Counted from the stretch's first letter, positions 21,496-40,774 are shown. The stretch is DNA of 64,000 nucleotides from an uncultured Thermoplasmata archaeon (GCA_963768855.1 CAVYJM010000011.1:32001-96000); one strand, 5' to 3'. The notes: a model not told the origin generated them from the sequence alone. Made by a program: numbers and translations.

Positions 21496-21924
21496 CTACC
21501 CGGACGGCGGAGCGGAAGGGGGCGCCGCCGGCGGCTTCGCCCCGACTCCCGCGGTCGCGGGCGGCACGGGGGGCAGCGGCACGGGGCTCGTCTCCCCGAC
21601 GACCTTCCCGCGCACGACGGCGCCCTTGTCCACGTAGACGCGGCCGCCCTCGTTCACGACGTCCCCTTGGACCAGCCCGTAGACCTCGACGTCCCCGCCC
21701 GTGGCCTTGCACGCTTTCGTGACGAGCCCTTTGAGGACCGCCTTGCCCGTGCGCTCCGCGAGCAAGTTTCCGGAGACCATTCCGGTGACTTCGCAAACGC
21801 TGTTGTCACGCACGAACAGGTCCCCGCGAACGAGGCCGGTCATTTGCGTCGGCCGCGGGCCGATCACGACGACGGATCCTTCGAAGCGCTCGTCGAGGAC
21901 GCCCCCGCGGAAGATGCGCACCAT
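21496..21924 (-). CDS. Bactofilin-like (polymer-forming beta-helix) protein with Pro-rich tail
   Basis: Repeated [VL]xG.V.G[DN][LV] units; start at ATG 21924 or upstream at 21948. Confidence 0.6.
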   Translation of the reverse strand: MVRIFRGGVLDERFEGSVVVIGPRPTQMTGLVRGDLFVRDNSVCEVTGMVSGNLLAERTGKAVLKGLVTKACKATGGDVEVYGLVQGDVVNEGGRVYVDKGAVVRGKVVGETSPVPLPPVPPATAGVGAKPPAAPPSAPPSG

Positions 21925-22051
21925 GAAGTCTGCCTCGACCTCGGCCAAGGGGCGGAATTTACTTCAAGATTTCGTCGCGGCGGGTGCCTCCGGACCCATC
22001 CAGGGGCTTACCGAAGCCTTTTGGGGGTCTTGTCCATCGGGAGCCGCGACG

Positions 22052-24751
22052 ATGCCCGAGGCTCCGCGCACGATCCAAGATGACGTGCAGCTCATCGAGG
22101 CGATCCTCGGCGAGGTCGTGGAGAGCGAGTCGGGGCCCGAGATGGCCCGCCTGGCCCGGGGCTTCCGCGGGCAGTGTGCGGAGACCCGCCGTCGCGGGGA
22201 CCCCGCCCTCGCGCAGAGCGTCCGCCGGCTCGCGGAGTCCCTGACCCTGGAACAGGCCGGATGCCTGTCCCGCGCCTTCTCGTTCCATTTCCTCCTCCTC
22301 AACTTGGCCGAGGACATTGACCGCGTACGTCGCCTCCGGGAGGCCGAGGCGACCGGAGTGCCCGTTCCCCAGTCGCTCGAGGACACCTTCCGGCGGCTGA
22401 AAGCTCAGGGAATCGACCGCGCGGAGGCGATGCGCCTCCTCGAGGCGATCGACGTCCATGCCGTGTTCACCGCCCATCCCACGGAACCGAAGCGGCGGAC
22501 CCTCCTGGAGCGGCTGCGGCGGATCCAGGCGCTCCTTGACCGCATCGACCGGGAACGGCTACTCCCCGCGGAGGTCGATGCGGTGAGGCTCGAGCTCAAG
22601 CGGGAGGCCATGGGGCTCTGGCACAGCGACGAGCTGCGGTTCCGGCAACCGCGGGTCATCGACGAGATCCGGATGGGACTCTTCTACTTCGATCATGTCG
22701 TGCTGGACATGATCCCGGACTTCTACCGGCGCCTCGCCCGGGCGATCGACCGCGTCTACGGCCCGGCGCGCGGGCGCATCCCTGCGTTCCTCTTCTTCGG
22801 TTCCTGGCGGGGGTCCGACATGGACGGGAACCCGCACGTCACGCCCGCCTCGATGCGGGAGGCCGCCCGCACCCAGCGGTCCTTCCTGTTGAATCGCTAC
22901 ATCGCGAGGTGCCGCGGGCTCATCGACGTCCTCACGGAGAGCGCCCGCTACGTCCCCCCGTCGCCCGCCCTCATGGCGTCCCTCCTCCAGGACCGAAAGG
23001 CCCATCCGCGGACCTGGCGTGAGATTCACCAGGTGAACCGCGAAGAGCACCACCGCGCCAAGATCACCTTCATCGGTCACAAGATCTCGTCCGTCCTGAA
23101 CCGGCCGCGGGACGGATACCGTTCCGCGGACGAACTCCTGGAAGATCTCCGGTTGCTCCAGTCGTCCTTGCGGATGAACGGGGCCCCGGACGAGGCGGAG
23201 GGCCCGCTCGAGGACTTCGTCCGCCAGGTCGAGACCTTCGGATTCCATCTCGCCTCCCTTGATCTCCGTCTCAACTCGAAGGACGTGGCCTCGGCGGTCA
23301 GCCAGATTCTCGCCGCTTCAGGGGAGGCGCGCGCGTACACGCGGCTGCCCGAGGAGAAGAAGGCCCAGCTGCTCACGCGTCTCCTGCAGGCGCGCTACCG
23401 GCCGCGGACGCTGAGGGTCACCGGGGACGGGGCGCGCGTGGTCGAAGCCCTCCGAGCCCTCGGAGAGGTGCAGCGCGACTACGGCGAGCCGATGATGCAC
23501 ACGATCGTCCTGAGCATGGCCCACGACCCGAGCGACGTGCTCGGGCTCCTGCTCCTCGCGAAGATCCTCCGGCTGGTCGACCTCAAGGAAGGCTACAGCC
23601 GGGTCGACATCTCGCCGCTTTTCGAGATGATCGAGGCCCTCGAGCGAAGCGGACACACGATGGGCGCGCTGTACGAGAACCCCGCCTACAAGGCCCATCT
23701 CGGGGCCCGCGGCCTCCGGCAGGAGGTCATGGTGGGGTACAGCGACAGCATGAAGGACGGCGGGATCTTCGCCTCCCGCTGGCGCCTCTTCCGCGCCCAG
23801 CGCGAGCTTGCGTCGGGCAGCGAATCCGCGGGCGTCTCCCTGACGATTTTCCACGGCCGGGGCGGATCGATCAGCCGCGGCGGCGTGCCTGCATTCGAGG
23901 CGATGCACGCACTGCCGTCCGAGGTCGCCACGGGCCGCATGCGGATCACGGAGCAGGGCGAGGTCCTCAGCTCCAAGTACTTCCATTTCCCCGTCGCCCT
24001 CCGCGAGACGGAGCAGTTGATCGGCGGCCTCCTGGTGGCGATGGCCTCGAAACACGAGGTGCCTGACCCCACATGGATGGACGCGATGGACCGCATGGCG
24101 GACGTGGGACAGGCGGCGTACCGCGGACTTGTCTACGGGGACCCGGGCCTCGCGGCGTACTTCGAGCACGCGACGCCGATCCACGAGATCGCCGAGCTCA
24201 ACATCAGTTCGCGGCCCTCGAGCCGGAAGGGCACGCTGCGGATCGAGGATTTGCGCGCGATCCCCTGGGTCTTCGCCTGGATGCAGAACCGACACATCCT
24301 GCCCGGGTGGTACTCGATCGGTTCCGCGCTCGCGTCCGTGGAGGACGTGGGCTTGCTGGCGCGCATGCACCGCGAATGGCCCTTCTTCGCGGGGATGCTC
24401 GACGCCGGGCAGATGGTCCTCGGGAAGGCCGACATGACCCTTGCGAGCCGGTACGCGGACCTCGTGCCCGATCCGGCCGTTCGAACGCGCATCTTCGGAA
24501 AGATCCTCCAGGAGCACGGGCTCAGCTTGCAGAAGATCATGGAGATTGCGAAGGTGCGCGAGGTCCTTGAGGCGGATCCGGTCCTCAAGGCCGCGGTCGC
24601 GCGGCGCGACCCCTATCTCGACCCGCTCAACTACATCCAGGCGGAGCTGCTCGACCGGAAGCGGCGCGAGGGCCGAAAGGATCCGGAACTCCTGCGTGCG
24701 ATCCTGCTCACGGTGAACGGGATCTCCCACGGGCTGCGGAACACCGGGTGA
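22052..24751 (+). CDS. ppc: Phosphoenolpyruvate carboxylase, bacterial/plant type
   Basis: VFTAHPTE, DGNP, PLFE, GYSDSMKDGG, FHGRGGSISRGG, TEQGE, LRAIPWVFAWMQNR, GLRNTG C-terminus; 899 aa. Confidence 0.96.
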   Translation: MPEAPRTIQDDVQLIEAILGEVVESESGPEMARLARGFRGQCAETRRRGDPALAQSVRRLAESLTLEQAGCLSRAFSFHFLLLNLAEDIDRVRRLREAEATGVPVPQSLEDTFRRLKAQGIDRAEAMRLLEAIDVHAVFTAHPTEPKRRTLLERLRRIQALLDRIDRERLLPAEVDAVRLELKREAMGLWHSDELRFRQPRVIDEIRMGLFYFDHVVLDMIPDFYRRLARAIDRVYGPARGRIPAFLFFGSWRGSDMDGNPHVTPASMREAARTQRSFLLNRYIARCRGLIDVLTESARYVPPSPALMASLLQDRKAHPRTWREIHQVNREEHHRAKITFIGHKISSVLNRPRDGYRSADELLEDLRLLQSSLRMNGAPDEAEGPLEDFVRQVETFGFHLASLDLRLNSKDVASAVSQILAASGEARAYTRLPEEKKAQLLTRLLQARYRPRTLRVTGDGARVVEALRALGEVQRDYGEPMMHTIVLSMAHDPSDVLGLLLLAKILRLVDLKEGYSRVDISPLFEMIEALERSGHTMGALYENPAYKAHLGARGLRQEVMVGYSDSMKDGGIFASRWRLFRAQRELASGSESAGVSLTIFHGRGGSISRGGVPAFEAMHALPSEVATGRMRITEQGEVLSSKYFHFPVALRETEQLIGGLLVAMASKHEVPDPTWMDAMDRMADVGQAAYRGLVYGDPGLAAYFEHATPIHEIAELNISSRPSSRKGTLRIEDLRAIPWVFAWMQNRHILPGWYSIGSALASVEDVGLLARMHREWPFFAGMLDAGQMVLGKADMTLASRYADLVPDPAVRTRIFGKILQEHGLSLQKIMEIAKVREVLEADPVLKAAVARRDPYLDPLNYIQAELLDRKRREGRKDPELLRAILLTVNGISHGLRNTG

Positions 24752-24754
24752 CCG

Positions 24755-25684
24755 TCACTCGTGGGCTTGGAGCCATCTCTCGACGTCGAGGGCGGCCATG
24801 CATCCGAAGCCCGCGGCCGTCACGGCCTGGCGGTAGCGATGATCGTGCACGTCGCCTGCGGCGAACACACCGTCCACGTTCGTGGCGGTCTGGAAGCCCT
24901 CGCGGGGCTGCAGGACGATGTAGCCCTTCTCCAGCTGAAGCTGCTCCCTGAAGACCTCGGTGGCGGGCGCATGGCCGATCGCGAGGAACAGTCCCTGGGC
25001 CTTGAGGTCCGTCGTGGCACCCGTCTTCACGTTCTTGACCCGAACACCTTCGACCTTCGTCTCGCCGAGGACGTCGACGACCTCGGAATCCCAGTCCACC
25101 TTGACGTTCGGCGTCTTGAGCAGCCGCTCCTGCATGATCTTGCTCGCGCGGAACTCGTGCCGGCGATGGACCACGGTCACGGTCTTGCAGAGCTTGGAAA
25201 GGTAGAGCGCTTCTTCCATGGCGGTGTCCCCGCCTCCCACGACGACCACGTCGAGCTGCTTGAAGAAGAAGCCATCACACGTCGCACACGCGGACACGCC
25301 GCGTCCCTTGAGGCGCTCTTCGTTCGGGAGGTTCAGGTACTTGGCGTTCGCACCCGTGGAGATGATGATCGCTTTCCCCTCATATTCCTGGTCCGCGACC
25401 CAGACACGGAACGGCTGCGACCGGAAGTCCACCTTCGTGACGTTGTCATCGACGAAGTCCGCCTTGAAGCGTTCCGCCTGTTTCCGCCAGAGGTCCATGA
25501 GCTCGGGGCCGAGCACGCCGTTCGGGAAGCCGGGGTAGTTCTCGACCTCGGAGGTGAGCATGAGCTGCCCCCCCGCCACCTGGCCCGCGATGACGAGCGT
25601 CTTCAGGTTCGCGCGGGTGGCATAGATGGCCGCGGTGAGTCCGGAAGGGCCCGAGCCGATGATGATCACGTCGTAGGGTGACAT
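24755..25684 (-). CDS. trxB: Thioredoxin-disulfide reductase
   Basis: IIGSGPSGLTAAIY, GGQL, VENYPGF, GVSACATCDG, VVGGGDTAMEEA, FAAGDV. Confidence 0.96.
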   Translation of the reverse strand: MSPYDVIIIGSGPSGLTAAIYATRANLKTLVIAGQVAGGQLMLTSEVENYPGFPNGVLGPELMDLWRKQAERFKADFVDDNVTKVDFRSQPFRVWVADQEYEGKAIIISTGANAKYLNLPNEERLKGRGVSACATCDGFFFKQLDVVVVGGGDTAMEEALYLSKLCKTVTVVHRRHEFRASKIMQERLLKTPNVKVDWDSEVVDVLGETKVEGVRVKNVKTGATTDLKAQGLFLAIGHAPATEVFREQLQLEKGYIVLQPREGFQTATNVDGVFAAGDVHDHRYRQAVTAAGFGCMAALDVERWLQAHE

Positions 25685-25783
25685 TCGTTCAAACGAAGGG
25701 GTCGGTGCAGTATAAGCGTTTCTCGAGGGGCTGGCAACGCGGGGCCGCATCGCGCTCTACCTTCATATCGGGGTTCCGACATC

Positions 25784-27013
25784 GTGGGTCCCTTGGCGTC
25801 GGACGATCTCGATCGGCTGCTCGCATTGCTGCCCACGGTGGACCATAAGCATGCGGTCCCACTCTTCGACCAGGTCATCAAGGACCTGGGGGCGGCAGGC
25901 CCGATCCTCCAGGGGCTCGTCTATGCCGCCTCGAACCACGATGATCCGCAGCTCCACACGCCCCACGGTCTCCTGACCATGGTGGCCGGACGCGAGCTCC
26001 TCCGGTTGACCCGTCCTCCCGGCGGCCTGGGCCTGCTGCGTTTCCTCGTCCTCTACAACTTCACGCTCCAGAGACGCGCCTTCGACGGGGCCGTTGGTCA
26101 GGCGATGATTCGCACCGTACCCGCCGCGGAACTCGATGAGCTCGGGGCGGCGTATCGGAAGGCGGTTCGCGGAGGCCTGGGCGACCAGGCAGCGAGCCTC
26201 CTCGGCCGGATTGCCACGGACTACGGCCTGGAATCGGCGGGCCATCTCGCGATCCGGTGTGCCCTTGGCGACGTGGGCCGCCTGGGGCACAACCTCGTCA
26301 TCGCGTCGGCGTATGTGCAGGCCGCCGAGATCGTGGGCGGGACGAGGGGACTGGTCCCCTTGATGAACCTCGGCCGGCTGCAAGCCTTCGCCCTGCAAGG
26401 AAGTCTTGGGCCCTTGATCCCAGAGCGGAGCGAATCGGACGCCCCTGCGGACGTCGAGGCCCTGGGAAAACTCGTCGAGGATGGCGCCTTCGATCAAGTC
26501 GAGGACGTGCTGGGAGCCCTCGCCTTCGCCGGGCAGGCGGATGAGGCGTACCGTCCGCTCTTGATCGCCGCGAGCGCCGATCCCGGGTTCCTCGGCCACT
26601 CCCTGAGTCTCGCGAACGCGGCTCGCGTGTCCTCTCGGTACCTCACCCCGTCCGAGAACGCCTGGCTCTCCTGGAAGCTCTATCGCACGCTCACGACGCG
26701 GTTCGGATACCCGGAGTTCCTCGCCCTCGGGAAGGGGGAATCCCTGGACCGCGAAGCGCTCCTTCCTGCCCTCGAGTCGAGCCTGCGATACCGGTCCCCT
26801 CCCGCCGAGCGCACGCTCCGTCAGGCGCTCGAGAACGACGTGCCGCTCGACGAGCTGCTCGCCACCGTCGTGAACTTCTACGGGAACTGGACGGTCGGCG
26901 AGAAGGAGCACACGATCAGCTACCTGAACGCCGCGCTGCAGACCGCGAAGTTCCTCGGGCGGGAGCAGGCGCTCCTGCCGCTGACGATCGCGCTCGGCAA
27001 GTTGCCGTTCTGA
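25784..27013 (+). CDS. Hypothetical all-helical protein with four His-centred repeats
   Basis: Long ORF with coding-like codon usage; repeats PHGLL, GHNLV, GHSLSLANA, EHTISYLNAA. Confidence 0.75.
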   Translation: MGPLASDDLDRLLALLPTVDHKHAVPLFDQVIKDLGAAGPILQGLVYAASNHDDPQLHTPHGLLTMVAGRELLRLTRPPGGLGLLRFLVLYNFTLQRRAFDGAVGQAMIRTVPAAELDELGAAYRKAVRGGLGDQAASLLGRIATDYGLESAGHLAIRCALGDVGRLGHNLVIASAYVQAAEIVGGTRGLVPLMNLGRLQAFALQGSLGPLIPERSESDAPADVEALGKLVEDGAFDQVEDVLGALAFAGQADEAYRPLLIAASADPGFLGHSLSLANAARVSSRYLTPSENAWLSWKLYRTLTTRFGYPEFLALGKGESLDREALLPALESSLRYRSPPAERTLRQALENDVPLDELLATVVNFYGNWTVGEKEHTISYLNAALQTAKFLGREQALLPLTIALGKLPF

Positions 27014-27023
27014 CCGCGGACCT

Positions 27024-28328
27024 TCAGCGCCGCTTCGCGAGCTCCTCCGTTTTCGCCTTCTCGTGGAACTGCTCCGTCTCCGTCGAGCCTTCCATGGCGA
27101 GAGTCGAGGCGGTCCCGCCGCTCAGGACCGTGGCAATCTCGTCGAAGTAGCCGGTGCCCACGAAGGCCTGGTGCTCGACCGCCGCATAGCCTTCCTCCTT
27201 CGCGGCGAACTCCTCCTGCTGGAGCTCCGTGTAGGCGGTCATCCCCGTCTCGCGGTAGTCCCGCGCCAGGCGGAACATGGAGAGGTTCATGGAGTGGAAC
27301 CCGGCCAACGTGACGAACTGGAACCGGTAGCCCATGTCCGCGAGCTCTTCCTGGAACCGCGCGATCTGCACGCCATCGAGTTTCTTCCTCCAGTTGAACG
27401 ACGCGGAGCAGTTGTACGCCAGCATCTTGTCGGGGAACTTCGCGTGGAGCGCGTCCGCGAAGGTCCGAGCCTCATCGAGGTCCGGGCTGGCGGTCTCGCA
27501 CCAGACGAGGTCCGCGTAGGGGGCGTAGCTCAGACCACGGGCGATCGCGGCGTCCAACCCCCCGTTCAACGTATGGAAGCCCTCGGAGGTCCGCTCGCTC
27601 CCGATGAACTCCCGGTCTCGCGGATCGACGTCGCTTGTGATCAGCTTGGCGCTGTTCGCGTCGGTCCGTGCGATCAGGATGGACGGGACGCCCTCGATGT
27701 CCGCCGCCAGTCGCGCGGCAACGAGTTTCTGGACGAACTCCCGCGTCGGGACCAGGACCTTGCCACCCAGGTGGCCGCACTTCTTCGCGCTCGCGAGCTG
27801 ATCCTCGAAGTGCGCGGCTGCGGCCCCCGCGTCGATGAGGGCTTTCATGAGCTCGAAGGCGTTGAGCGGCCCTCCGAAACCCGCCTCGGCGTCCGCGATG
27901 ATCGGGGCGAACCAGTCCACGTCCCGGCGGCGCGCCATATGTTGCTTTTGGTCCTCGCGACGGAAGGCGTTGTTCAGCCTTCGTACGACGTTCGGGACGG
28001 AATCCGCCGGGTAGAGGCTCTGGTCCGGGTACGTCTGGCCGGCGTCGTTCGCGTCCGCTGCGACCTGCCAGCCGCTGAGGTAGATGGCCTTGAGGCCGGC
28101 CTGGACCTGTTGGACCGCCTGGCCTCCCGTCATCGCGCCGAGTGCCGCGACGAACGGCTCGTTACGGAGGAGGTGCCAGAGGCGTTCGGATCCGTGATGC
28201 GCGAGCGTGTGGGCGACCGGGAGCGATCCGCGAAGGCGGAGAACGTCCTCTGCCCGGTACGGCCGCAGGATGCCGGCCCAGCGTTCGTTGGTTTTCCAGC
28301 TCTGTTCCAACTCGCGTGCGTCAGTCAT
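27024..28328 (-). CDS. aceA: Isocitrate lyase
   Basis: [70 protein letters not shown]. Confidence 0.97.
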
Positions 28329-31030: not shown

Positions 31031-32482
31031 ATGGAACCGCAGGAGATCCGGCTCTTCATCGGTGGCAAATCCGTGCCTGCGTCCTCCGGCGGGAGTATGG
31101 ACGTCATCGATCCCGCGACGAACCGCGTGGTCGCGCGGGCGGCCTCGGGCACGAAGGAGGATGTCGCGATCGCCGTGGAGTCCGCGAGCGCCGCCTTCGA
31201 GTCGCCGGACTGGAGAGACCTCGACCCGAGCAAGCGGGGCCGGCTCCTCTTCCTCCTGGGTCAGCAGGTCCGGGACCATTTCGAGGACCTCGCGCGCCTC
31301 GAATCGCTGAACGTCGGGAAGCCGCTCAAGGAGGCCCGCGGGGACATCGCGTACGTGTACAAGCTCTTCGAATATTATGCAGGCCTGGCAGATAAAATTC
31401 AGGGGGACACGATCCCCGTGCCCGGCGCTCGCCTCGACTACACCTTGCGTGAACCCCTCGGGGTCACTGCGCACATCGCTCCGTGGAACTATCCGCTGCT
31501 TCTTGCCTGCCGGGGGATCGCGCCCGCCTTGGCCGCGGGCAACACCGTCGTCCTGAAGCCCGCTTCCCTGACCCCCTGGACCGCCGTCCAGATCGCGCAG
31601 TACGCGTCGGCCGCCGGCTTCCCCCCGGGCGTCTTCAATGTCGTGACCGGACCGGGGCGCGAGGTTGGCGGCGCCCTCGCAGGCCATCCGGAGGTCGCGA
31701 GCGTGACCCTGACGGGTTCGACTGAAACCGGGAAGCAGCTCCTCCATGCGGTCGCAGACCGGATCGTGCCCACGACTCTCGAGCTCGGCGGGAAGAACCC
31801 GCAGATCGTCCTGCCCGATGCGAAGCTGGACCGGGCGCTCGCCGGCGTGCACTTCGGCGCGTTCCAGAACGCGGGACAGATGTGCTGGGCCGGGTCGAAG
31901 GTGCTCGTCCACGAAGAGATCGCTGCGTCCCTCCTTGGCAGGCTGAAGGAGCGCATCGCGAAGACCCGTCTCGGCCCCGGACTCGAGGACGGGGTCCAGA
32001 TGGGCCCCGTCGTCTCGCGGCAGCAGGAGGCCGGCATCTTGGCGGCGATTGAGGACACCACGCGCACCGGTGCCCGACCGAGTGTCGGCGGCGGGAAGGC
32101 CGACGAGCCTGCTCTGCGCGACGGGAACTTCGTCCGGCCCACCCTCTTCGAGAATCCTCCGGAGGAGAGCCGCGTCGCGCGGGAGGAGGTTTTCGGCCCC
32201 GTCCTCGCCGCGTTCACGTTCACGGACCTGGACGATGCCGTGGCCAGGGCAAACGACACGCCGTATGGGCTGAGCGCGGGCGTCTGGACGCAGGACCTCG
32301 GCAAGGCGCACACGATCGCGCGGCGGCTCAAGGCAGGGATGGTCTCGATCAACGAGTACCCGATCACGTTCCCGCAGACGCCCTTCCTCGGCTGGAAGCA
32401 ATCGGGGCTAGGCCAGGAGCAGGGCGTGGATGCCGTCCTCTTCTACACCCACGCGAAGAACGTCCTCGTGAACCTGGAATGA
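31031..32482 (+). CDS. NAD(P)-dependent aldehyde dehydrogenase (betaine/aminoaldehyde-type family)
   Basis: APWNYP, KPASLTP, TGSTETG, LELGGKNP, NAGQMCWAG, EEVFGPV. Confidence 0.95.
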   Translation: MEPQEIRLFIGGKSVPASSGGSMDVIDPATNRVVARAASGTKEDVAIAVESASAAFESPDWRDLDPSKRGRLLFLLGQQVRDHFEDLARLESLNVGKPLKEARGDIAYVYKLFEYYAGLADKIQGDTIPVPGARLDYTLREPLGVTAHIAPWNYPLLLACRGIAPALAAGNTVVLKPASLTPWTAVQIAQYASAAGFPPGVFNVVTGPGREVGGALAGHPEVASVTLTGSTETGKQLLHAVADRIVPTTLELGGKNPQIVLPDAKLDRALAGVHFGAFQNAGQMCWAGSKVLVHEEIAASLLGRLKERIAKTRLGPGLEDGVQMGPVVSRQQEAGILAAIEDTTRTGARPSVGGGKADEPALRDGNFVRPTLFENPPEESRVAREEVFGPVLAAFTFTDLDDAVARANDTPYGLSAGVWTQDLGKAHTIARRLKAGMVSINEYPITFPQTPFLGWKQSGLGQEQGVDAVLFYTHAKNVLVNLE

Positions 32483-32498
32483 TCCGCCGTCGTCCGGG

Positions 32499-33659
32499 TC
32501 AGAGGTCGCGGAGCTCTTCCTGGACCACGAGTCCCTTCTCCCTCAATCGCTCGAGGTACGCCTCGGAATCCAGCTGCTCCGGGATGACGATGCCTCGATC
32601 CGGGACGCGTCCCTCGAGAAGCATCTCCGCGGCGACCGCGCCGCCCGTGCCCACGAGGTACGCCGTTGCGTTCGTGCGGTGGAGCCGGTAGGCGTCCTCA
32701 TAGGAGAGGCCCGTCCACATCCTCACGCACGCGGCCTTGCCTTGCCTCAATCCGGTCACCTCCACGACGAACGACGCATGTCCCCGGATCCGGCTCGCAA
32801 GGAGGACGGGGCTGGGCAGCGCCGCCGCGATCACGTCCAGGGGCCGCACGCGGACGCCCCGAACGTCAATCGGCTCGCCCCGCAGCAGACCGAGCCTCCG
32901 GAGGGTGTCCGCGGCCCGTACCCAGGAGTCATCGATGAAAATGTTGAACGAGGCGCGCTCGAGGCTCTTGATCCCGATCGGCAGGAAGTACGTCTCGTCG
33001 TGGTTCGTCTTGAAGACCCGGAGCGGCCCGACCGGCGGCGGGAACAGGAACGTCTGGCTCGAGCTCATCGGAGGGAGGAACCGGATCGCACCTCCCTCAT
33101 ACACCGCCGCCGGGACGCTCATCTCGTCCAGGAGGTCCACGGGGGACCAGGTGGAGAACAGCTCGACGCCGTCCACGCTCGCCGTGTCGCCGTCGTACAC
33201 GTGCGCCTCGTCCGCGCGGTCCAGCCTGCGTGCAGCGTGCATCGCGAACACGTCGGAGATCCCGGGCTCCATGCCCATGCCGACCAGGGCGGCGATCCCC
33301 GCCTCCCTGCACATTCTGGATGCCTCATCGAATTCTGGGCCCGTGCCGTCGAACGGCATCCCGAAGTCTAGGTAGTCCGTCTTGGTCTGGGCCGCGACAT
33401 CCATGACGATCTTGTTGAGCCGCCACGGCATGGAGGCGATGACGAGGTCAGCGTCCTCGAGGAGCCGCTTCAAGGCCGCCGGGTCGGTGCCGTCGATGTC
33501 CAGGACCGAGACCCGATTCGGCGGGAGGCGTGGCAGGAGAGCTTGGGCCGCCTCGGTCTTCCGGTCCGCGAGGACGAGATGGTCGACGCGGGGGTGCTTC
33601 GCGAGGTGCTCCGCACACACGAGCCCGCAGACGCCACATCCAAGCTGGACGACCCGCAT
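32499..33659 (-). CDS. Saccharopine dehydrogenase family (lysine 6-dehydrogenase/carboxynorspermidine dehydrogenase-like)
   Basis: QLGCGVCG Rossmann; LVLADR; GMGMEPGISDV; STWSP..LLDE; HDET. Confidence 0.88.
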   Translation of the reverse strand: MRVVQLGCGVCGLVCAEHLAKHPRVDHLVLADRKTEAAQALLPRLPPNRVSVLDIDGTDPAALKRLLEDADLVIASMPWRLNKIVMDVAAQTKTDYLDFGMPFDGTGPEFDEASRMCREAGIAALVGMGMEPGISDVFAMHAARRLDRADEAHVYDGDTASVDGVELFSTWSPVDLLDEMSVPAAVYEGGAIRFLPPMSSSQTFLFPPPVGPLRVFKTNHDETYFLPIGIKSLERASFNIFIDDSWVRAADTLRRLGLLRGEPIDVRGVRVRPLDVIAAALPSPVLLASRIRGHASFVVEVTGLRQGKAACVRMWTGLSYEDAYRLHRTNATAYLVGTGGAVAAEMLLEGRVPDRGIVIPEQLDSEAYLERLREKGLVVQEELRDL

Positions 33660-33819
33660 CGTATCGCCGCATCGGGCGGACCCCGGTCCTCCCGCGACGT
33701 CCGGGGGATTCCGGGAAGCGGCTTAAGCGTTTCAGGAGACGGGGTACGCACCCGGTCTCACCACCAGGCCTTCCGAAACGGTTGAAAGGCCGCAGGGTGG
33801 TCCCGGTGCCGAGGGAATC

Positions 33820-35217
33820 ATGCGCCACGATCCACGGAGGGTCCATCCGTACATCCCGAACTCGGCGCCGGCCGCCAAGGAAGCCATGCTGCGCGAGGTC
33901 GGTGCCGAGAGCGAAGACGATTTCTACGAGGACATCCCCGAGGGGCTCCGGTTCCGCGGGCGGCTGGACTTGCCGGAACCCTTGACGTCCGAACACCTGC
34001 TCCGGAGGCACGTGGAAGGGCTCCTCGCCAGGAACCGCAGTTGCAAGGAGGTCCTGAACTTCCTCGGCGCAGGCTGCTACGAGCACGCCGTGCCTGCGGT
34101 ATGCGACGAGATCAATTCCCGCGGAGAGTTCCTGACGGCCTACGCGGGGGAGCCGTACGACGACCACGGCCGGTTCCAGGCCCTGTTCGAGTACGCGAGC
34201 CTCATGGGGGAGCTTCTGGCCATGGACGTGGTGAACGTGCCCACCTACGACGGCTTCCAGGCCACCGCCACCGGCCTGCGCATGGCGGCGCGGATCACGG
34301 GCCGGAACGAGGTCCTCGTCTCCCGCGCGATCGCCGCTGACAAGCTCTCCAAGATCCGCGACTACCTGAAACCCCGTCATTCCGTGAGGTTGTTCGACTT
34401 CGACGCATCGACGGGAGGGCCCGACCTCGGCTCGCTCGAGGCCCTGATCGGGAAGGAGACCGCCGCAGTCTATTTCGAGAATCCCTCTTACTTGGGCGTG
34501 ATCGCCACGCAGGGAGGGCGCGTCTCGGAGATGGCCCACGGCGCTGGCGCGCTGTCCGTCGTCGGTGCGGACCCGAGCACCCTGGGCATCCTCGCACCCC
34601 CCGCAGACTACGGCGCCGACATCGTCGTGGGGGACCTCCAGCCGCTCGGGATGCACATGCAGTTCGGTGGGGGGCATGCGGGGTTCATCGCCACCCGGGA
34701 CGAGCCGAAGTATGTGGCGGAGTATCCCTCCCGGCTTTTCGGGATCACCTCCACCTCCGTGGACGGTGAGTACGGCTTTGGCGACGTCGCCTACGACCGC
34801 ACGTCCTTCGCGAAGCGGGAGGCAGGCAAGGAGTGGGTCGGCACGGCTGCGGCCCTCTGGGGGATCACCGCCGGCGCCTACCTCGCCCTCATGGGACCCG
34901 AGGGGATGCGAGAGCTGGGCGAGTCCATGCTAGCGAAGTCGCACTACGCGGCGCGCCGCCTGTCGCGGATCCCCGGCGTCCGCGCACCGTATTTCCGGGG
35001 TCCGTTCTTCCACGAGTTCGTCGTGGACATCCGCCGCACCGGGAAGAACGTGGCCCAGGTCAACCGCGCGCTCCTGCGCCGCGGGATCTTCGGTGGCAAG
35101 GATCTCTCTCAGGAGTTCCCGGAACTCCGGGGGCGCGCCCTGTACTGCGTGACCGAGGTGGCCACCCAGGACGACTTGGACAGGCTCGCCGAAGCGGTCC
35201 GGGAGGTCGTCGCATGA
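33820..35217 (+). CDS. gcvPA: Glycine-cleavage P-protein subunit 1-like (divergent)
   Basis: HPYIP, FLGAGCYEHAVP, EFLTAY, FQALFEY, YDG, GDLQPLG, LYCVTE. Confidence 0.9.
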   Translation: MRHDPRRVHPYIPNSAPAAKEAMLREVGAESEDDFYEDIPEGLRFRGRLDLPEPLTSEHLLRRHVEGLLARNRSCKEVLNFLGAGCYEHAVPAVCDEINSRGEFLTAYAGEPYDDHGRFQALFEYASLMGELLAMDVVNVPTYDGFQATATGLRMAARITGRNEVLVSRAIAADKLSKIRDYLKPRHSVRLFDFDASTGGPDLGSLEALIGKETAAVYFENPSYLGVIATQGGRVSEMAHGAGALSVVGADPSTLGILAPPADYGADIVVGDLQPLGMHMQFGGGHAGFIATRDEPKYVAEYPSRLFGITSTSVDGEYGFGDVAYDRTSFAKREAGKEWVGTAAALWGITAGAYLALMGPEGMRELGESMLAKSHYAARRLSRIPGVRAPYFRGPFFHEFVVDIRRTGKNVAQVNRALLRRGIFGGKDLSQEFPELRGRALYCVTEVATQDDLDRLAEAVREVVA

Positions 35218-36821
35218 AGGACATCCCCGCCCTCCGGAATGCCGAGGGCACACCGCGCCTCCGGAGGTTCCACCAGGCCCGGTGGGACGAGCCCATCCTC
35301 TTCGAGCTGAGTGCCAAGGGGGAACGCGGCGTCCGGGTGCCCGAGGCGGAGCCCGGGATCCGGAAAGCCGTCGGAGACGTCGTCGGATCGCTGCCGAGAT
35401 CGGTCCTGCGCAGGAGTCCGCCCGCGCTCCCCGAGATCTCACAGAACCGCGTCCTGCGCCACTACCTGCGGCTGTCCCAGGAGAACCTCGGCGCGGACCT
35501 CAACATCGACGTGGGCCAGGGAACGTGCACGATGAAGTACAGCCCGAAGGTGAACGACCAGCTCGCGCGTCTGCCTCAGATGGCAGAGCTCCACCCGCTC
35601 CAGCCCGAGGAGACCGTCCAAGGGATCCTGGAAATCCTGTACCGCTTCGAGAGCTTCCTGAAGGCGCTCTCTGGCATGGACGCCTTCTCCCTTCAGCCCG
35701 GGGCAGGGTCCGCAGCGATCTACGCGAATGCATCGATCATCCGAGCGTACCATGAGTCCCGCGGAGAAGCGGCCCAGCGGCGGGAGATCATCACGACGAT
35801 CTTCTCGCATCCCTCCAACGCGGCCTGCGCGAAGACCGCGGGCTTCGACGTGGTGACCCTGTATCCGGACGCGGACGGTTACCCAGACCTGAAGGCATTG
35901 AAGGCGGCCGTCTCCGAACGCACCGCGGGTCTCATGATCACGAACCCGGAGGACACGGGGATCTTCAACCCGAGGATCCGGGAGTTCGTCGACGCGGTGC
36001 ACGAGGTGGGAGGGCTGTGCGCCTACGACCAGGCGAACGCGAACGGCATCCTGGGCATCACGCGCGCACGGGAGGCGGGGTTCGACATGTGCCACTTCAA
36101 CCTCCACAAGACCTTCTCCACGCCCCACGGCTGCGGAGGACCCGCGGGCGCGGCGATCGGCGTGCGGAGGGAGCTCGCACGGTTCCTGCCGACCCCCGTG
36201 GTCGCCTTCGACGGGAAGCGGTACCGTCTGGACTACGACCGTCCCGACAGCATCGGGAAGATCCGGCCGTGGTACGGAGTCGCGCCGGTCATCCTGAGAG
36301 CCTACGCGTGGGTCATGAGCCTCGGCGCCGAGGGCCTGCGGGAGGTGGCTAGGGTCGCCGTCCTGAACAACAACTACCTGCTCAAGCGGATGCTCGAGAT
36401 TCGGGGCATCCAAGCACCCTACGCGAAGGGGAAGCGCCGCATCGAGCAGGTGCGGTACAGCTGGGAGGAGCTCGCCCGCGAGACGGGCGTCCACACCGAA
36501 GACCTCGGCCTACGGGCCGCAGACTTTGGCGTGCACTATTGGATGAGCCATCATCCTTGGATCGTGGGGGAGCCCTGCACGCTCGAGCCGACCGAATCGT
36601 ACTCAAAGGCGGATCTCGACGAATACGCCGCGATCCTGCGCCATGTCGCGCAGGAGGCGAGGACGGATCCCGAGCGGGTCAAGACGGCGCCCCACAACAG
36701 CACGGTCCATCGCATCGACCCATCCCCCCTCGATGACCCAAGAGAGTGGGCGATGACTTGGAGAGGGTATCGGAAGAAGCTTAAACGCGGTCTCGAGTCC
36801 CGGGGAGGGAAGACGCCATGA
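35214..36821 (+). CDS. gcvPB: Glycine-cleavage P-protein subunit 2-like (PLP-binding, divergent)
   Basis: RHYLRLSQEN, GTCTMKYSPK, HGCGGP, DQANAN, CHFNLHKTFSTPHG (PLP Lys), AVLNNNY, EPTES; ATGA overlap. Confidence 0.92.
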   Translation: MKDIPALRNAEGTPRLRRFHQARWDEPILFELSAKGERGVRVPEAEPGIRKAVGDVVGSLPRSVLRRSPPALPEISQNRVLRHYLRLSQENLGADLNIDVGQGTCTMKYSPKVNDQLARLPQMAELHPLQPEETVQGILEILYRFESFLKALSGMDAFSLQPGAGSAAIYANASIIRAYHESRGEAAQRREIITTIFSHPSNAACAKTAGFDVVTLYPDADGYPDLKALKAAVSERTAGLMITNPEDTGIFNPRIREFVDAVHEVGGLCAYDQANANGILGITRAREAGFDMCHFNLHKTFSTPHGCGGPAGAAIGVRRELARFLPTPVVAFDGKRYRLDYDRPDSIGKIRPWYGVAPVILRAYAWVMSLGAEGLREVARVAVLNNNYLLKRMLEIRGIQAPYAKGKRRIEQVRYSWEELARETGVHTEDLGLRAADFGVHYWMSHHPWIVGEPCTLEPTESYSKADLDEYAAILRHVAQEARTDPERVKTAPHNSTVHRIDPSPLDDPREWAMTWRGYRKKLKRGLESRGGKTP

Positions 36822-37609
36822 AGGCACGGACGAGTGGCGGCAGTGGCAGGTTGGCCGGGAAAGTGGCGTTGGTGACCGGTGGGGCCTCGGGGATCGGGAA
36901 GGCCACGGCAATCCTGTTCGGCAAGGAAGGCGCCGCCGTTGTGGTCCACGATGTCAAGGAGGAGGGGCTGGCCACGGCCGAGGAGATCGTCGCCGCAGGC
37001 GGGCGAGCGTCGTTCATCCACGGGGACGTGACCCGGGCTGCAGACTGCCAGGCGGCCGTGCAGAAGGCCGTCACGGAGTTCGGCAGCATCGATGTGCTCG
37101 TCAACAACGCAGGGATCATCCGGCGCGCGTCCGTCGTCGACACGACCGAGGAGGAGTGGGACCGCGTCATGGCCGTGAACGTCAAGTCCGTCTTCCTCCT
37201 TTCGAAAGCTGCAATCCCGATCATGGCTCGGAGCGGCGGTGGCGTCATCGTGAACACGGCTTCCGGGTGGGGACTGGACGGCGGCCGGGACGCCGCGTCG
37301 TACTGCGCGTCGAAGGCGGCGGTCGTGAACCTGACCCGGGCCATGGCCATCGATCATGCGGATCAGAACATCCGCGTGAACTGCGTCTGCCCCGGAGACA
37401 CCGACACGGCGATGCTCCGGGAGGAGGCCCGTCAGCTCGGCCAGGATGTGTCGCAGTTCCTGGCGAGGTCTGCGCAAAGGCCGCTGGGCCGGATGGGTCG
37501 ACCCGAGGAGATCGCCCAAGCCATCTTGTTCCTCGCGAGCGATGCGTCCTCCTACGTCACAGGGACCGCCCTCGTCGTCGACGGAGGCGGACATGCAGGG
37601 TCGGCTTGA
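36818..37609 (+). CDS. SDR family oxidoreductase
   Basis: VTGGASGIG, VNNAG, YCASK, RVNCVCPGDTDT, VDGG; overlaps the gcvPB-like stop. Confidence 0.94.
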   Translation: MKARTSGGSGRLAGKVALVTGGASGIGKATAILFGKEGAAVVVHDVKEEGLATAEEIVAAGGRASFIHGDVTRAADCQAAVQKAVTEFGSIDVLVNNAGIIRRASVVDTTEEEWDRVMAVNVKSVFLLSKAAIPIMARSGGGVIVNTASGWGLDGGRDAASYCASKAAVVNLTRAMAIDHADQNIRVNCVCPGDTDTAMLREEARQLGQDVSQFLARSAQRPLGRMGRPEEIAQAILFLASDASSYVTGTALVVDGGGHAGSA

Positions 37610-37680
37610 CCCCGGTTGGTTTTCCGCGTCCCGAATGGGTGGTCGAAAGGCTTGAGAGGGAGCGCGCCTTGGCGGCGGCG

Positions 37681-38226
37681 ATGATCTACATCGCGGCGAC
37701 CGCGACCTTGGTGGGGGACGTGTCCCTCGCAGAGGGATCGAGCATCTGGCACGGGGCCGTCCTGCGCGGCGACTTCGACGCGGTGAGTGTGGGCCAGGAC
37801 TCCAACGTCCAGGACAACGCGGTCCTCCATGTGGATCGGCGGATGCCCTGTGAGGTCGGCGACCGCGTCACCGTGGGCCACGCCGCGGTTGTCCACGGTT
37901 CCAAGGTGGGTGGCGAGTGCCTCATCGGAATGAACGCGACGATCAATAGCGGCACGGTCATCGGGCGCGGGTGCCTCGTCGCGGCGGGTGCCGTCACCCG
38001 GGAGAACGCCATCTTCCCTGAGGAGAGCGTCGTCGCTGGTGTCCCCGCGAAGGTCCTTCGGAAGGTGGACGAGACTCTCTGGAAGCGGATCGAGCTGTCC
38101 TGGAAGATCTACCGCGACCTCGCCAAGGCGAGCTTGCCGGCGAGGCCCGAGATCGCTGCGGACCGGAGCAAGCAGGTCCACTTTGAAATGTCCGAGGAGT
38201 TCACGCGGCTCGTCCGCAAGGGTTGA
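37681..38226 (+). CDS. Gamma-carbonic-anhydrase family (YrdA/CaiE/PaaY-like hexapeptide protein)
   Basis: GDVSLAEGSSIWHGAVLRGD, NVQDNAVLH, TVGHAAVVHG, GVPAKVLR. Confidence 0.93.
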   Translation: MIYIAATATLVGDVSLAEGSSIWHGAVLRGDFDAVSVGQDSNVQDNAVLHVDRRMPCEVGDRVTVGHAAVVHGSKVGGECLIGMNATINSGTVIGRGCLVAAGAVTRENAIFPEESVVAGVPAKVLRKVDETLWKRIELSWKIYRDLAKASLPARPEIAADRSKQVHFEMSEEFTRLVRKG

Positions 38227-38270
38227 GGACACCCAAACGTTTTTCGAGGTCCGCCGCTTCGGCGTCGGGG

Positions 38271-38675
38271 ATGGCGCGCTTCACAACGGAGATGCAGATG
38301 CGGTTCCGGGACCTCGACGCCATGGGCCACGTCAACAACGCGGTCTACCTGTCCTACTGCGAACTCGCGCGCACCCAGTTCTACCTGAAACATGCGTTCA
38401 AGCGCTCCTTGCACGACATCGACTTCATCCTCGCCCATGTCGACATCGACTACGTCTCAGCGGCGGAGTGGGGCGACCAGGTCGAGGTGTCCGTCTGGCC
38501 TTCGAAGATCGGAGAGTCATCCTTCACGCTGAGCTACGAGCTCCGGGACAAGAAGTCGAACCGGCTCCTCGCGAAGTCCTCGAGTGTCCTGGTTTCCTAC
38601 GACTACGACAAGAAGCAGACGAAACCGATCCCGTCCGAGTTCCGCAAGATGCTCGAGGAAAACCTGGAAGCCTAA
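38271..38675 (+). CDS. Acyl-CoA thioesterase (4HBT/YbgC hotdog family)
   Basis: [19 protein letters not shown]. Confidence 0.92.
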
Positions 38676-40774
38676 TGAGTCCCACGCAGGAGTGCGCGTA
38701 GCCGCTCCGGATCCGCGGTCGGCGGCGAGCACGCGGTCCCCTGGCACACGAAGGCCACCGGCCCCGCCCTCGCTTCCGCCGTCTTGCGCATGTGGTCCAC
38801 CGCATCCGGCACATACGAGTCGTCCTTTTCCGCGAGCAGGAGACTTTTCCCCGGGGCGTAGGTCTCCCGGGCCGAGGACAGCAGCGAACGGGTCCGCGGG
38901 TCCTCCGACGCCCCGAGGATGACGATCTCGGCCCGAGGATGCAGCCACAGTTCCGCCGCCAGGAAGTAGGTGCCGCAGAAGATGGGACCGTAGCGAGCCG
39001 CCTCGCCCGCGGATGCCAGGATGACTTGGTCGTGGTGCAGGCGGTAGTCGTCGTTCCCGGTGAGCGCGTGCAGGCGCTGCAGGCAGAGCGCCGCCACGGG
39101 GTTGGCCCCAGCGTAGGGGGAATCCTCGAGCGGGCGGCGTCGGATCTCCGTGAGGCTGAGTTCATTCCCCTCGTGGAGTTCTTTCGCCAGGTCAACGAAG
39201 CCCTTGCGCTCCTGATCCCAGAAATGCTTCAGGGTGAACGCCATGACCTCGTCGGCCCGCCGCAACCAAGTCGGGTCTCCGGTTGCCGTGTGCGCGGTGA
39301 GGAAGGCGTCGACCATGAACACGTGGTCCTCGAGAAGCCCTCGGATCTTGCGCTTGTCATCTGCAAGCGCGTGCCACATGCCATAGTCCGATGTCCAGAG
39401 CTGCTTCCAGAGGCGGTTCAGGGTCTTCAGAGCGAATGCCGTCACCGCGCCGCGGTCGAAGGCCATCCCGGCCTCGAGGGCGGCGGCCGCCATCATCCCG
39501 TTCCACGACGCATAGATCGTCCGGTCGACGGCGGGGGCCTCCCGTTGGATTCGCGCCGCCTTGAGATGCGCGAGGCCGTTCGCAAGGAGGATCTTCACCC
39601 GGTCCAACGGCAAGGAGAGCTTCTCGGAGATCTCCTCCAGCGTCGCGGCGACATACAGGACGTTCTTCTTCGGGTTGTGATGCATCTCTCCCTTCTCGCC
39701 TATGTCGAATCGGAGCGCGAGGACGCGCGTCTCATCGGCCGCGAGCGCGGCCTTCAGTTCCTCGAGGGTCCACGTGAAGTAGTCTCCGTCATCGTCCAGC
39801 CCGACGTCCGCATCCTGGCTCGTGTAGTATCCGCCACGCTTTCGGTCGGAGAGGACTTCCTCGAGCCATGACAGGATGCCCTCCGCGGTCTCCCGGAAGA
39901 GCGGGACCCGTGTCAGCTGCCAGGCGTGGACGTAGTTCGTGAGCAGGCCGGCGTTGTCGTATAGCATCTTCTCGAAGTGCGGCACGATCCACTGGCCGTC
40001 CGTCGAGTAGCGGTGGAACCCGCCGGCTACCTGATCATACACACCGCCCTGGGCCATGGCCGTGAGGGTGCGGACCGCAATGTCCTTGAGCCCCGTCGAT
40101 CCCGTGCGATGGACGTCCGCCAGGAGGAACTCGATGGCCCCCGCATGGGGGAACTTCGGCGCGGATCCGAAGCCGCCGTTCACGGGGTCGTGCTCCCCCC
40201 GCAGCGCGTCGACGCCCTCCTTGAGGAAGGCGTCGTTGACGACGGCCTCGTCCATCACGGACGCGCGTCGCTCCGCGAGCGCCTGGTGCAGGGACTCCGC
40301 GTCCCGCATCGCCTCGCCCTTGTTCTCGTGGTAGTGCTTCGCGACGGCCTTGAGTACGTGCTCGAAGCTCGGGCGGTTGTATGCGTCCTTCGGCGGGAAG
40401 TAGGTGCCTCCGTAGAAGACCTTGCCCTCAGGAGTGAGGAAGGCGGTGAGCGGCCAGCCGCCCGATCCCGTGAGCGAGCCGACGGCCTGCTGGTATCTCG
40501 CGTCGACGTCGGGCCGCTCGTCCCGGTCCACCTTGACCGCGATGAATTCCTCGTTGATGATCTGGGCGAGCCTCGGGTCCTCGTAGGACTCGCGGTCGAT
40601 GACGTGGCACCAGTGGCACCACGACGCCCCGATGTCGAGGAGGACCGGGCGGTCGAGTTCCTTCGCCTTGTGGAACGCTTCCTCGCCCCAGGGGTGCCAG
40701 TCCACGGGCTGATGCGCCGCGCTCCGGAGGTACGTGGACGTCTCCTTCGCGAGACGATTCGCCTTTTCCGGCAT
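38672..40774 (-). CDS. YyaL/SPATA20-like thioredoxin-domain protein (DUF255)
   Basis: [61 protein letters not shown]. Confidence 0.94.

Follow-up and report, generated by a model that had tools for sequence, protein, structure and literature searches.

A GcvPA/GcvPB-like pair coupled to a short-chain dehydrogenase/reductase in an uncultured Thermoplasmata archaeon belongs to a divergent clade and probably does not function in glycine cleavage

In a 64-kb stretch of DNA from an uncultured Thermoplasmata archaeon (GCA_963768855.1 CAVYJM010000011.1:32001-96000; referred to here as the window), two genes resembling gcvPA and gcvPB, which encode the alpha and beta subunits of the glycine cleavage P-protein, are followed by a gene for a short-chain dehydrogenase/reductase (SDR). 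The two P-protein-like subunits, designated PA and PB, are not the glycine decarboxylase of this archaeon, which is encoded on another contig. Sequence comparisons place them in a separate, horizontally mobile clade distinct from true P-proteins, and their function is very probably distinct from glycine cleavage. The interpretation that we favor, with somewhat more confidence than doubt, is that PA and PB constitute a pyridoxal phosphate (PLP) enzyme of the P-protein fold that would decarboxylate a small polar amino acid other than glycine, independently of the H-protein and working with the SDR. Taken by itself, the proposal that PA and PB are a simple decarboxylase of a non-glycine amino acid comes close to an even chance, if slightly short of it.

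The window lies on contig C11 of a 2.87-Mb, 24-contig metagenome-assembled genome (MAG) that is 93.6% complete with 7.7% contamination. When the whole assembly was searched with the GcvPB profile, two pairs were recovered, the window pair (592 bits) and a pair on contig C12 (C12:102011-104667; 698 bits). The C12 pair, which carries the canonical motifs KAMSNICTN and PHGGGGPG, answers a check proposed in an earlier note on this DNA, a search for a second, canonical gcv operon in the genome. Identity to the relatives of the C12 pair, which bear the names Thermoplasmata, Methanobacteriota, and 'Euryarchaeota RBG_16_68', declines smoothly from 98% to 63%, and therefore the C12 pair is considered the vertically inherited copy and the host a Thermoplasmata archaeon. 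The origin of contig C11 is supported despite the contamination estimate because another Thermoplasmata MAG (L016) and a genome of the same genus (G261) share the same arrangement. All 11 genomes checked had a canonical P-protein (split or fused) in addition to the divergent one; these were the window genome and genomes of Anaerolineales, Aminicenantes, Longispora, Streptomyces, Thermoplasmata, Bathyarchaeota, Brockarchaeota, Bipolaricaulota, Thermotogae, and Lentisphaerales.

The earlier note had also pointed out that no gcvT or gcvH lies near the pair, and tblastn with the GcvH and GcvT of this genome gave no matches in the 64-kb window. Elsewhere in the genome, GcvH is encoded on C10 and C17, and GCV_T-family genes are present on C10, C21, C6, and C18. 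The absence of these genes from the window is weak evidence when considered alone because the canonical pair on C12 is also not beside gcvT or gcvH. The wider comparison covered 85 divergent-pair loci with up to 10 kb of flanking sequence on each side. GcvH was detected by tblastn at none of them, and a GCV_T-family gene was near the pair at just one. In contrast, canonical PB and gcvH shared a contig and were no more than 3 kb apart in 4 of the 5 genomes tested, with the divergent PB on another contig.

Relatives of the window PB at 75 to 96% identity number in the hundreds in metagenomes, and PB relatives are encoded at at least 582 genome loci. The best match in a genome was from a Thermoplasmata MAG (86%), followed by Bathyarchaeota, Anaerolineae, Brockarchaeota, Chloroflexota, and Acidobacteriota at 76 to 79% and, lower down, by Actinomadura, Kitasatospora, and Streptomyces (ca. 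68 to 74%) and Burkholderiales (66%). Identity within the clade is 66 to 96% across two domains and at least eight phyla. In an exhaustive search of representatives at 50% identity, PB scores fell into separate bands: 750 to 825 bits for the core clade, 470 to 560 bits for sister groups (44 to 51% identity), and at most ca. 350 bits for canonical GcvPB and fused P-proteins. A maximum likelihood tree of 67 sequences, computed quickly under LG+G4 and with poorly resolved deep canonical branches, placed the 26 core rows on one branch (Shimodaira-Hasegawa-like approximate likelihood ratio test [SH-aLRT] support, 97) and joined core and sisters with support of 99; the canonical PB of the same genome fell outside both groups. 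Thus, the phylogeny against bona fide GcvPA and GcvPB that the earlier note had proposed sets the window pair apart as a separate clade.

Within the Thermoplasmata the clade is rare. A divergent PB was found in 4 of 301 sampled genomes, which included one of the same genus (86% identity) and two distant ones (59 to 60%), and the window PB is nearer to Bathyarchaeota and Chloroflexota copies (76 to 79%) than to the distant Thermoplasmata copies. This patchy distribution, together with high identity across phyla, indicates horizontal transfer. A full-text search of one literature library found no study of the divergent PA/PB clade.

The deviations from canonical motifs that first drew attention to the pair are conserved in 78 PA and 91 PB members of the clade, and therefore they are not chance drift. 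For PA, the 78 clade members were compared with 19 canonical sequences (8 split proteins from Thermoplasmata and 11 N-terminal halves of fused P-proteins), a small set that is drawn partly from one class. The canonical set has 40 invariant columns, of which the clade kept 18 and switched 12 to another conserved residue. The YTPYQPE loop is replaced with YAGEPYDDHGRF (residues 108 to 119), and the REQHIRR-KA-SNICT segment is replaced with RTSFAKREAGKEWVGT (residues 327 to 342); the motif EAGKEWVGTAAALW, to which the earlier note had called attention, is present as residues 334 to 347. Expressed as consensus sequences, T.YTPYQPE.SQG.L becomes TAYAG-EPY.DHGRF, with loss of the second tyrosine of YTPYQPE (the window PA has YAG-EPYDDHGRF in place of this motif), and LQTREQHIRREKA.SNICT becomes VAYeRTSFA.REeGkEWVGT.

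Numbered as in human GLDC, the second of these PA segments shows Q366 to Y, H371 to F, I372 to A, R373 to K, K376 to A, S379 to E, N380 to W, and C382 to G. Published studies give residue letters that agree with the canonical motif, a check on the register. According to those studies, the SNIC cysteine (C335/C353) is in the active site, with activity more than sixfold lower in the Escherichia coli C335S variant (PMC10185560); Y161 and Y164 of YTPY are active-site residues, and Q366, I372, R373, and K376 belong to the docking-predicted interface with the H-protein (PMC7259800); and Q366 is in the lipoamide channel, with I381 and C382 near the pocket (PMC4767401). The conserved PA switches cluster in the loops that form the glycine pocket and the lipoamide channel. 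The replacement of C382 with glycine and of N380 with tryptophan would fit an enlarged pocket and a plugged lipoamide channel.

The PB subunit combines retention of its catalytic residues with replacement of several conserved motifs. Of 72 columns invariant in canonical PB, 52 were kept and 14 had switched, each at 92 to 100% within the 91 clade members. From canonical to clade, LGSCTMK became QGTCTMK, AG..GE became GS.AI, AHGTN became SHPSN, NPNTLG became NPEDTG, DGAN.NA became DQANANG, PHGGGGP became PHGCGGP, MHE became IEQ, and HPPT.YFP became HYWTSHHP. The PHGCGGPAG sequence reported in the earlier note corresponds to PB residues 304 to 312, and the PLP lysine that it described as retained is K299 in NLHKTF (codon at 36108). 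This lysine, D272 (YDQANANG), and H199 (FSHPSN) are kept in both the core and canonical sets. We take D272 to be the aspartate that contacts the PLP ring nitrogen and H199 to be the stacking histidine, as in fold-type-I PLP enzymes generally. The conservation of these three residues suggests that PLP chemistry at the alpha-carbon has been retained. Four cysteines (Cys205, Cys269, Cys293, and Cys307) are fixed in 89 to 100% of the clade but present in at most 6% of the canonical set.

One PB site varies within the clade. Residues 441 to 448 (36534 to 36557) read HYWMSHHP in the window and in a near relative (P0016) and HYWTSHHP in the rest of the clade. The threonine, shared by HYWTSHHP and HPPT, is otherwise conserved in both clades; the methionine is specific to this lineage.

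The genes surrounding the pair were compared by clustering all open reading frames (ORFs), called mechanically, from 80 genome loci and the window. In these 81 sources, PA was present in 78, the SDR cluster in 66, and, directly after PB, a gene for a kinase-fold protein in 66. The kinase-fold protein (387 amino acids [aa]) has NAD_kinase and NAD_kinase_C domains and is COG3199/AcoX-like. The SDRs beside PA and PB are orthologs of the window SDR (54 to 83% identity) in about 66 to 70 of the 80 loci. Divergence of the SDR from the window copy was correlated with that of PB (Spearman 0.73, n = 62), as was divergence of PB with that of PA (0.78), although these values are descriptive only because the rows are related. 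Gene orders included PA-PB-kinase-SDR (the most common), PA-PB-SDR-kinase, SDR-PA-PB-kinase, kinase-PA-PB, and PA-PB-SDR, and the linkage of the SDR and kinase-fold genes to PA and PB survives this shuffling. PA and PB are inherited, and passed between lineages, along with their specific SDR. In the window, both junctions read ATGA, as the earlier note had described, and the SDR gene is translationally coupled to PB. Searches of the PDB matched the window SDR with generic SDRs only (ca. 40% identity) and gave no sequence match for the kinase-fold protein. Asp45, which follows strand beta-2 of the SDR, presumably indicates use of NAD(H), as in other SDRs, and this suggests an oxidative, catabolic role.

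The kinase-fold gene is not always beside the pair. By tblastn it was absent from the window and from loci L011, L014, and L016, and it was also absent at L012 (paired with L011), L015, three Acidobacteriota loci, and several Chloroflexota loci; L014 to L016 are the closest relatives of the window locus. About 13 of 79 scorable loci had no such gene beside the module. This state requires at least 7 to 8 changes on the PB tree and therefore arose repeatedly. The only homolog in the window genome (C6:1018163-1019263) is 40% identical. Among five other genomes with kinase-less loci, a homolog was encoded elsewhere in three. Two Acidobacteriota genomes with PA-PB-SDR (G306, with locus L030, and G307, with locus L042; 7.1 and 5.8 Mb, completeness not reported) had no COG3199 homolog at E values up to 1e-10. 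Therefore, the kinase-fold partner is not obligatory in cis: the window and about 13 of the 79 loci lack an adjacent gene, and two genomes lack any homolog. PA-PB-SDR appears to be the minimal unit, and the window contains an archaeal, kinase-less, three-gene form of the module.

The single COG3199 gene of the window genome lies in an apparent operon (C6:1015800-1020350; locus L096:7848-12349, minus strand) with the order UbiA-family prenyltransferase, COG3199, tdh, and kbl. Against cut-offs of 380 and 460, the tdh and kbl products scored 404 and 464 bits, respectively. COG3199 stands next to tdh-kbl much as it usually stands next to the SDR and PA/PB, a parallel that may be a clue to its role. 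The one divergent-pair locus with a GCV_T-family gene, L057, is another without the kinase-fold gene, and it also has no SDR gene. Its GCV_T-family gene, which encodes a folate-binding, aminomethyltransferase-like protein (L057:6341-7117, minus strand), is ca. 1.6 kb upstream of the divergent pair, on the opposite strand.

Beyond PA/PB, the SDR, and the kinase-fold protein, no universal neighbor emerged from a Pfam tally of 126 flanking ORFs from ca. 60 nonredundant loci, in which the highest counts were MTTB, 4; Peptidase_M20, 4; GntR, 4; LysR, 3; and DAO, 2. At actinomycete loci the shared neighbors are a sugar ABC transporter, a GH42 beta-galactosidase, and a GntR regulator. Other loci have BKACE with a major facilitator superfamily transporter and a thiamine pyrophosphate enzyme, or Pro_racemase with a second SDR and a CoA-transferase. 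In the sister clade the contexts were Aminotran_3 with the kinase-fold gene and DAO, a Puu-like amine cluster, and a TRAP transporter with Aminotran_3. At the Puu-like locus (L099, on a Logan contig from SRR26458591), PA/PB and COG3199 are flanked on one side by a zinc-dependent alcohol dehydrogenase (Zn-ADH) and an SDR and on the other by a Pot-type (PotABCD-like) ABC transporter, Gln-synt_C (PuuA type), and Peptidase_C26 (PuuD type), a setting that is a gamma-glutamylation-type amine-utilization cluster.

From these comparisons we infer that the pair functions without the H-protein, that it decarboxylates its substrate, and that this substrate belongs to the following class. The enzyme most likely works without a lipoyl H-protein on a small polar, non-glycine alpha-amino acid, which would probably be hydroxy- or oxo-substituted. 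The carbanion formed by decarboxylation would simply be protonated, rather than passed to lipoamide. The coupled SDR, apparently of the NAD type, could act on the substrate or on the amine product by oxidizing or reducing a hydroxyl or keto group. In most lineages the COG3199/AcoX-like kinase-fold protein is a third partner, and the window copy is a natural PA-PB-SDR version without it. Three observations point to hydroxy- or oxo-amino compounds but do not prove them: the fit of the C382-to-glycine and N380-to-tryptophan replacements to the pocket, the parallel with the tdh-kbl operon that carries the only COG3199 gene of the genome, and the class-III aminotransferase-family and amine-utilization genes at sister loci.

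Several observations weigh against this interpretation. Both subunits exceed equivalog cut-offs, with 483 bits for GcvPA (NF001696; cut-off, 364) and 592 bits for GcvPB (NF003346; cut-off, 441), so that by profile score alone the window pair would be P-proteins. The H-protein interface residues are known from a docking model and not from a structure. A gcvH gene was present in all 11 host genomes checked, and thus use of an H-protein supplied in trans is possible. The new PB cysteines could point to chemistry beyond simple decarboxylation. Furthermore, no substrate can be named from context because the flanking genes differ greatly between lineages.

The most probable of the alternatives is that the fold has been kept but the reaction has changed, an explanation that we nevertheless regard as unlikely. 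PA and PB might be a PLP lyase, a transaminase, a retro-Claisen or retro-aldol enzyme, or a decarboxylative C-C or C-S bond-forming enzyme that acts on an amino alcohol, an amino ketone, or a hydroxy-amino acid. Preparation of the substrate would fall to the SDR and, at other loci, to the kinase-fold protein, in analogy with Tdh and Kbl or with the dehydrogenase, kinase, and phospho-lyase routes for amino alcohols. Four conserved cysteines have been gained around the PLP site, and the canonical active-site cysteine has been lost. The only COG3199 homolog of the genome is directly upstream of genes for a dehydrogenase and a PLP-dependent, C-C-cleaving enzyme; at sister loci, class-III aminotransferase-family genes and DAO accompany PA/PB and the kinase-fold gene, and the BKACE, CoA-transferase, or Pro_racemase genes of other loci would also be consistent with a changed reaction. 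However, relatives of the P-protein are known only as decarboxylases, and most of the invariant PB columns are retained. In addition, the results identify no second substrate, and the analogies come from gene neighborhood only.

The clade could also be a self-contained, H-protein-independent enzyme in which the remodeled channel and the four newly fixed cysteines close to the active site make possible a reaction new to the P fold, and we assign this the same low probability. The carbanion would be captured either by an internal thiol or disulfide or by a carbonyl partner, with decarboxylative formation of a C-S or C-C bond. If this were the case, then the pair and its SDR would carry out a catabolic step, new and traded horizontally, on a hydroxylated amino compound that is common in sediments and soils.

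It is improbable that PA and PB are an ordinary or condition-specific isozyme of glycine decarboxylase that still relies on lipoyl-GcvH from elsewhere in the genome as the acceptor of the aminomethyl group, for example, in the reductive glycine direction. The scores above the NCBIfam GcvPA and GcvPB cut-offs, the retention of the PLP lysine, aspartate, and histidine and of 52 of the 72 invariant PB columns, and the existence of gcvH and gcvT in a genome in which the canonical pair is likewise unlinked to them would all be expected of such an isozyme. However, the positions in contact with glycine and the lipoamide arm carry other residues throughout the clade, and in the 11 genomes the clade was always an extra copy, never the sole P-protein. 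None of the 85 divergent loci was beside gcvH, the neighbor of canonical PB in most genomes tested, and the divergent pair has an SDR and a kinase-fold protein of its own, neither of which plays a part in glycine cleavage.

The earlier note had proposed a repurposed P-protein acting within an amine pathway. The first part of this proposal is borne out by the canonical pair elsewhere in the genome, the separate clade, the rewritten loops, and the consistent lack of linkage to gcvH. The second part, in which PA/PB would decarboxylate the carboxy-polyamine or amine precursor of the adjacent saccharopine dehydrogenase (Sacchrp_dh)-like enzyme and an aldehyde dehydrogenase (ALDH) would complete the pathway, is very unlikely to be correct. 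The genes are adjacent in the order that the note had given, with the Sacchrp_dh-like gene diverging from PA across a 160-nt spacer and converging on the ALDH gene with a 16-nt gap, and this arrangement is kept in L014 to L016 and G261. The Sacchrp_dh-like protein resembles a carboxyspermidine dehydrogenase (8DEB, E value of 6e-28; a closer PDB match was 4INA, E value of 5e-39), the ALDH resembles betaine-aldehyde and aminobutyraldehyde dehydrogenases, and one sister-clade locus, L099, is in the Puu-like cluster described above.

However, only three or four genomes, all of one genus, show the adjacency. The two distant Thermoplasmata copies, arranged SDR-PA-PB-kinase and kinase-PA-PB, have neither the ALDH nor the Sacchrp_dh gene, and ca. 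80 bacterial and archaeal loci likewise have neither gene. Orthologs of the Sacchrp_dh-like protein (47 to 64% identity) in 28 other genomes were not beside PA or ALDH within 1.5-kb flanks. The family occurs in 87 of the 301 genomes of the class, concentrated in a few families with up to 6 to 7 copies each and with 6 copies in the window genome, so that chance adjacency would be easy. The window protein scored just 114 bits against the NCBIfam carboxynorspermidine synthase cut-off of 800, and its Thermoplasmata paralogs were all far below this cut-off. Likewise, the ALDH was below every equivalog cut-off, with an NCBIfam score of 478 bits for betaine-aldehyde dehydrogenase (cut-off, 669). Known carboxyspermidine and carboxynorspermidine decarboxylases have a different PLP fold. 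Thus, of the neighborhood linkages, that to the SDR is conserved, whereas that to the ALDH and Sacchrp_dh-like genes does not extend beyond the genus; these two genes are neighbors in local synteny and not parts of a conserved module.

Table 1. Genes and intergenic region at the PA-PB-SDR locus, in window coordinates
Feature	Position	Strand	Supporting matches or features
ALDH, similar to betaine-aldehyde and aminobutyraldehyde dehydrogenases, 483 aa	31031-32482	+	Pfam Aldedh, E value 5e-164
Saccharopine/carboxyspermidine-dehydrogenase-like protein, 386 aa	32499-33659	-	Pfam Sacchrp_dh_NADP and Sacchrp_dh_C
Divergent intergenic region, candidate promoter/operator	33660-33819		Two conserved blocks and an inverted repeat
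PA, GcvPA-like alpha subunit of a P-protein-like PLP enzyme, 465 aa	33820-35217	+	Pfam GDC-P, E value 4e-55
PB, GcvPB-like beta subunit, catalytic and PLP binding, 535 aa	35214-36821	+	NCBIfam GcvPB; 1WYT chain B
Classical SDR, 263 aa	36818-37609	+	Pfam adh_short_C2, E value 5e-70; TGGASGIG, YCASK, Asp45 ending strand beta-2
Hexapeptide-repeat protein, gamma-carbonic-anhydrase/PaaY/CaiE family	37681-38226	+	Pfam Hexapep
YbgC/FadM-type 4HBT acyl-CoA thioesterase, 150 aa	38223-38675	+	Pfam 4HBT_2, E value 3e-22; TIGR00051, 65.7 bits (cut-off, 68.7)

The intergenic region between the Sacchrp_dh-like and PA genes (Table 1) contains two blocks, CTTAAGCGTTTCAGGAGAC (33722 to 33740) and CCGAAACGGTTGAAAG (33773 to 33788), that are conserved across the three aligned Thermoplasmata loci (the window, L014, and L016), although the spacer between them differs by ca. 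20 nt. The blocks include an imperfect inverted repeat (CGTTTC/GAAACG) and could serve the divergent Sacchrp_dh and PA-PB-SDR units as a promoter or operator. In a search of the whole genome both blocks were found solely here, except for a one-mismatch copy of the second block at C6:1078786, and no regulon could be derived. No Rfam family, including the glycine riboswitch, was matched between 29000 and 40000 at E values up to 1. Among public sequencing runs carrying 33600 to 38700, no RNA run was listed, and the DNA runs were wetland and freshwater-sediment metagenomes.

Two further genes follow the SDR gene on the same strand. The gene for the hexapeptide-repeat protein, which scored 125 bits with the NCBIfam gamma carbonic anhydrase model (cut-off, 250), starts 71 nt downstream and may be cotranscribed with the SDR gene, and the thioesterase gene overlaps it by 4 nt. 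Both genes are also downstream of the SDR gene in L014/L015 and were seen in this lineage only. A helper protein that handles CO2, bicarbonate, or acyl-CoA beside a putative decarboxylase could be meaningful.

Upstream of the locus, an AP_endonuc_2 gene was considered as a possible sugar or hydroxypyruvate isomerase and rejected because it encodes endonuclease IV. The region from 21701 to 28328 encodes a phosphoenolpyruvate carboxylase (21701 to 24751, plus strand), a thioredoxin-reductase-like flavoprotein (24755 to 25750, minus strand), a 382-aa ORF with no Pfam match (25763 to 26911, minus strand), and an isocitrate lyase (27024 to 28328, minus strand). The isocitrate lyase is genuine (736 bits; cut-off, 562) and unrelated to the PA-PB-SDR module, but a glyoxylate-shunt enzyme is noteworthy in a Thermoplasmata archaeon.

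Automatic annotation labels PA and PB 'glycine cleavage system P-protein', a mislabeling that arises because both subunits pass the NCBIfam cut-offs. As a result, metabolic models of many uncultured archaea, Chloroflexota, Acidobacteriota, and some actinomycetes overcount or misassign glycine cleavage and the reductive glycine pathway. The strong conservation of the clade across domains and its horizontal spread argue for a useful, specific reaction on a common environmental nitrogen compound. If the substrate were identified, a PLP fold known for one reaction would gain a new reaction or, failing that, a new class of substrate. Hosts of the clade that can be cultured, Actinomadura, Kitasatospora, Streptomyces atratus, Longispora, and Pseudoduganella, make genetic studies feasible, and the kinase-less PA-PB-SDR form defines a minimal unit for expression and assay. 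What is new from this window is the archaeal, kinase-less, three-gene form, the finding that the module can do without a kinase-fold partner in cis and that two genomes have none at all, the co-occurrence with canonical P-proteins in 11 genomes, the rarity of the clade in Thermoplasmata, and a residue contrast tied to published positions.

One of the known systems with which the locus can be compared is the pairing of carboxyspermidine or carboxynorspermidine dehydrogenase (CASDH/CANSDH) with the corresponding decarboxylase (CASDC/CANSDC). In both cases a gene of the Sacchrp_dh fold adjoins a gene for a PLP decarboxylase-like protein, but the window Sacchrp_dh-like protein is far below the cut-off, the fold of the decarboxylase differs, and the pairing is limited to one genus. 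Another is Tdh with Kbl. In this system, as at the locus, a dehydrogenase partners a PLP enzyme of fold type I whose chemistry is at the alpha-carbon of a small amino acid, and a COG3199 gene precedes tdh-kbl in this genome, just as COG3199 accompanies PA/PB in most other lineages. However, Tdh is a Zn-ADH rather than an SDR and Kbl is an alpha-oxoamine synthase rather than a P-protein, and thus the analogy is one of organization only. The PA-PB-kinase-SDR form found at other loci has PA and PB of the same clade and the same orthologous SDR and differs in the adjacent COG3199/AcoX-like gene, which the window does not have.

The split P-protein GcvPA/GcvPB (EC 1.4.4.2), known from Thermus thermophilus (1WYT, 1WYU, and 1WYV), is the nearest of the known systems and shares with the window pair its two-gene architecture, its fold, and the overlapping alpha-beta gene order. 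PA matches chain A of 1WYT with an E value of 4e-75, PB matches chain B with an E value of 3e-97, and the NLHKTF lysine, the PLP aspartate and histidine, and the EPTES motif are all kept. In contrast, the window pair is in a separate clade in which the alpha-subunit YTPYQPE and KA(T/M)SNICT loops are replaced, as are the PHGGGGP, HGTN, DGAN, and HE motifs of PB. Its clade has no linkage to gcvH and a GCV_T-family neighbor at 1 of 85 loci, always accompanies a canonical copy in the genomes checked, and has dedicated SDR and kinase-fold partners. Thus, despite passing the profile cut-offs, the window pair departs from the split P-protein in motifs, clade, and gene context and should not be filed as GcvPA/GcvPB.

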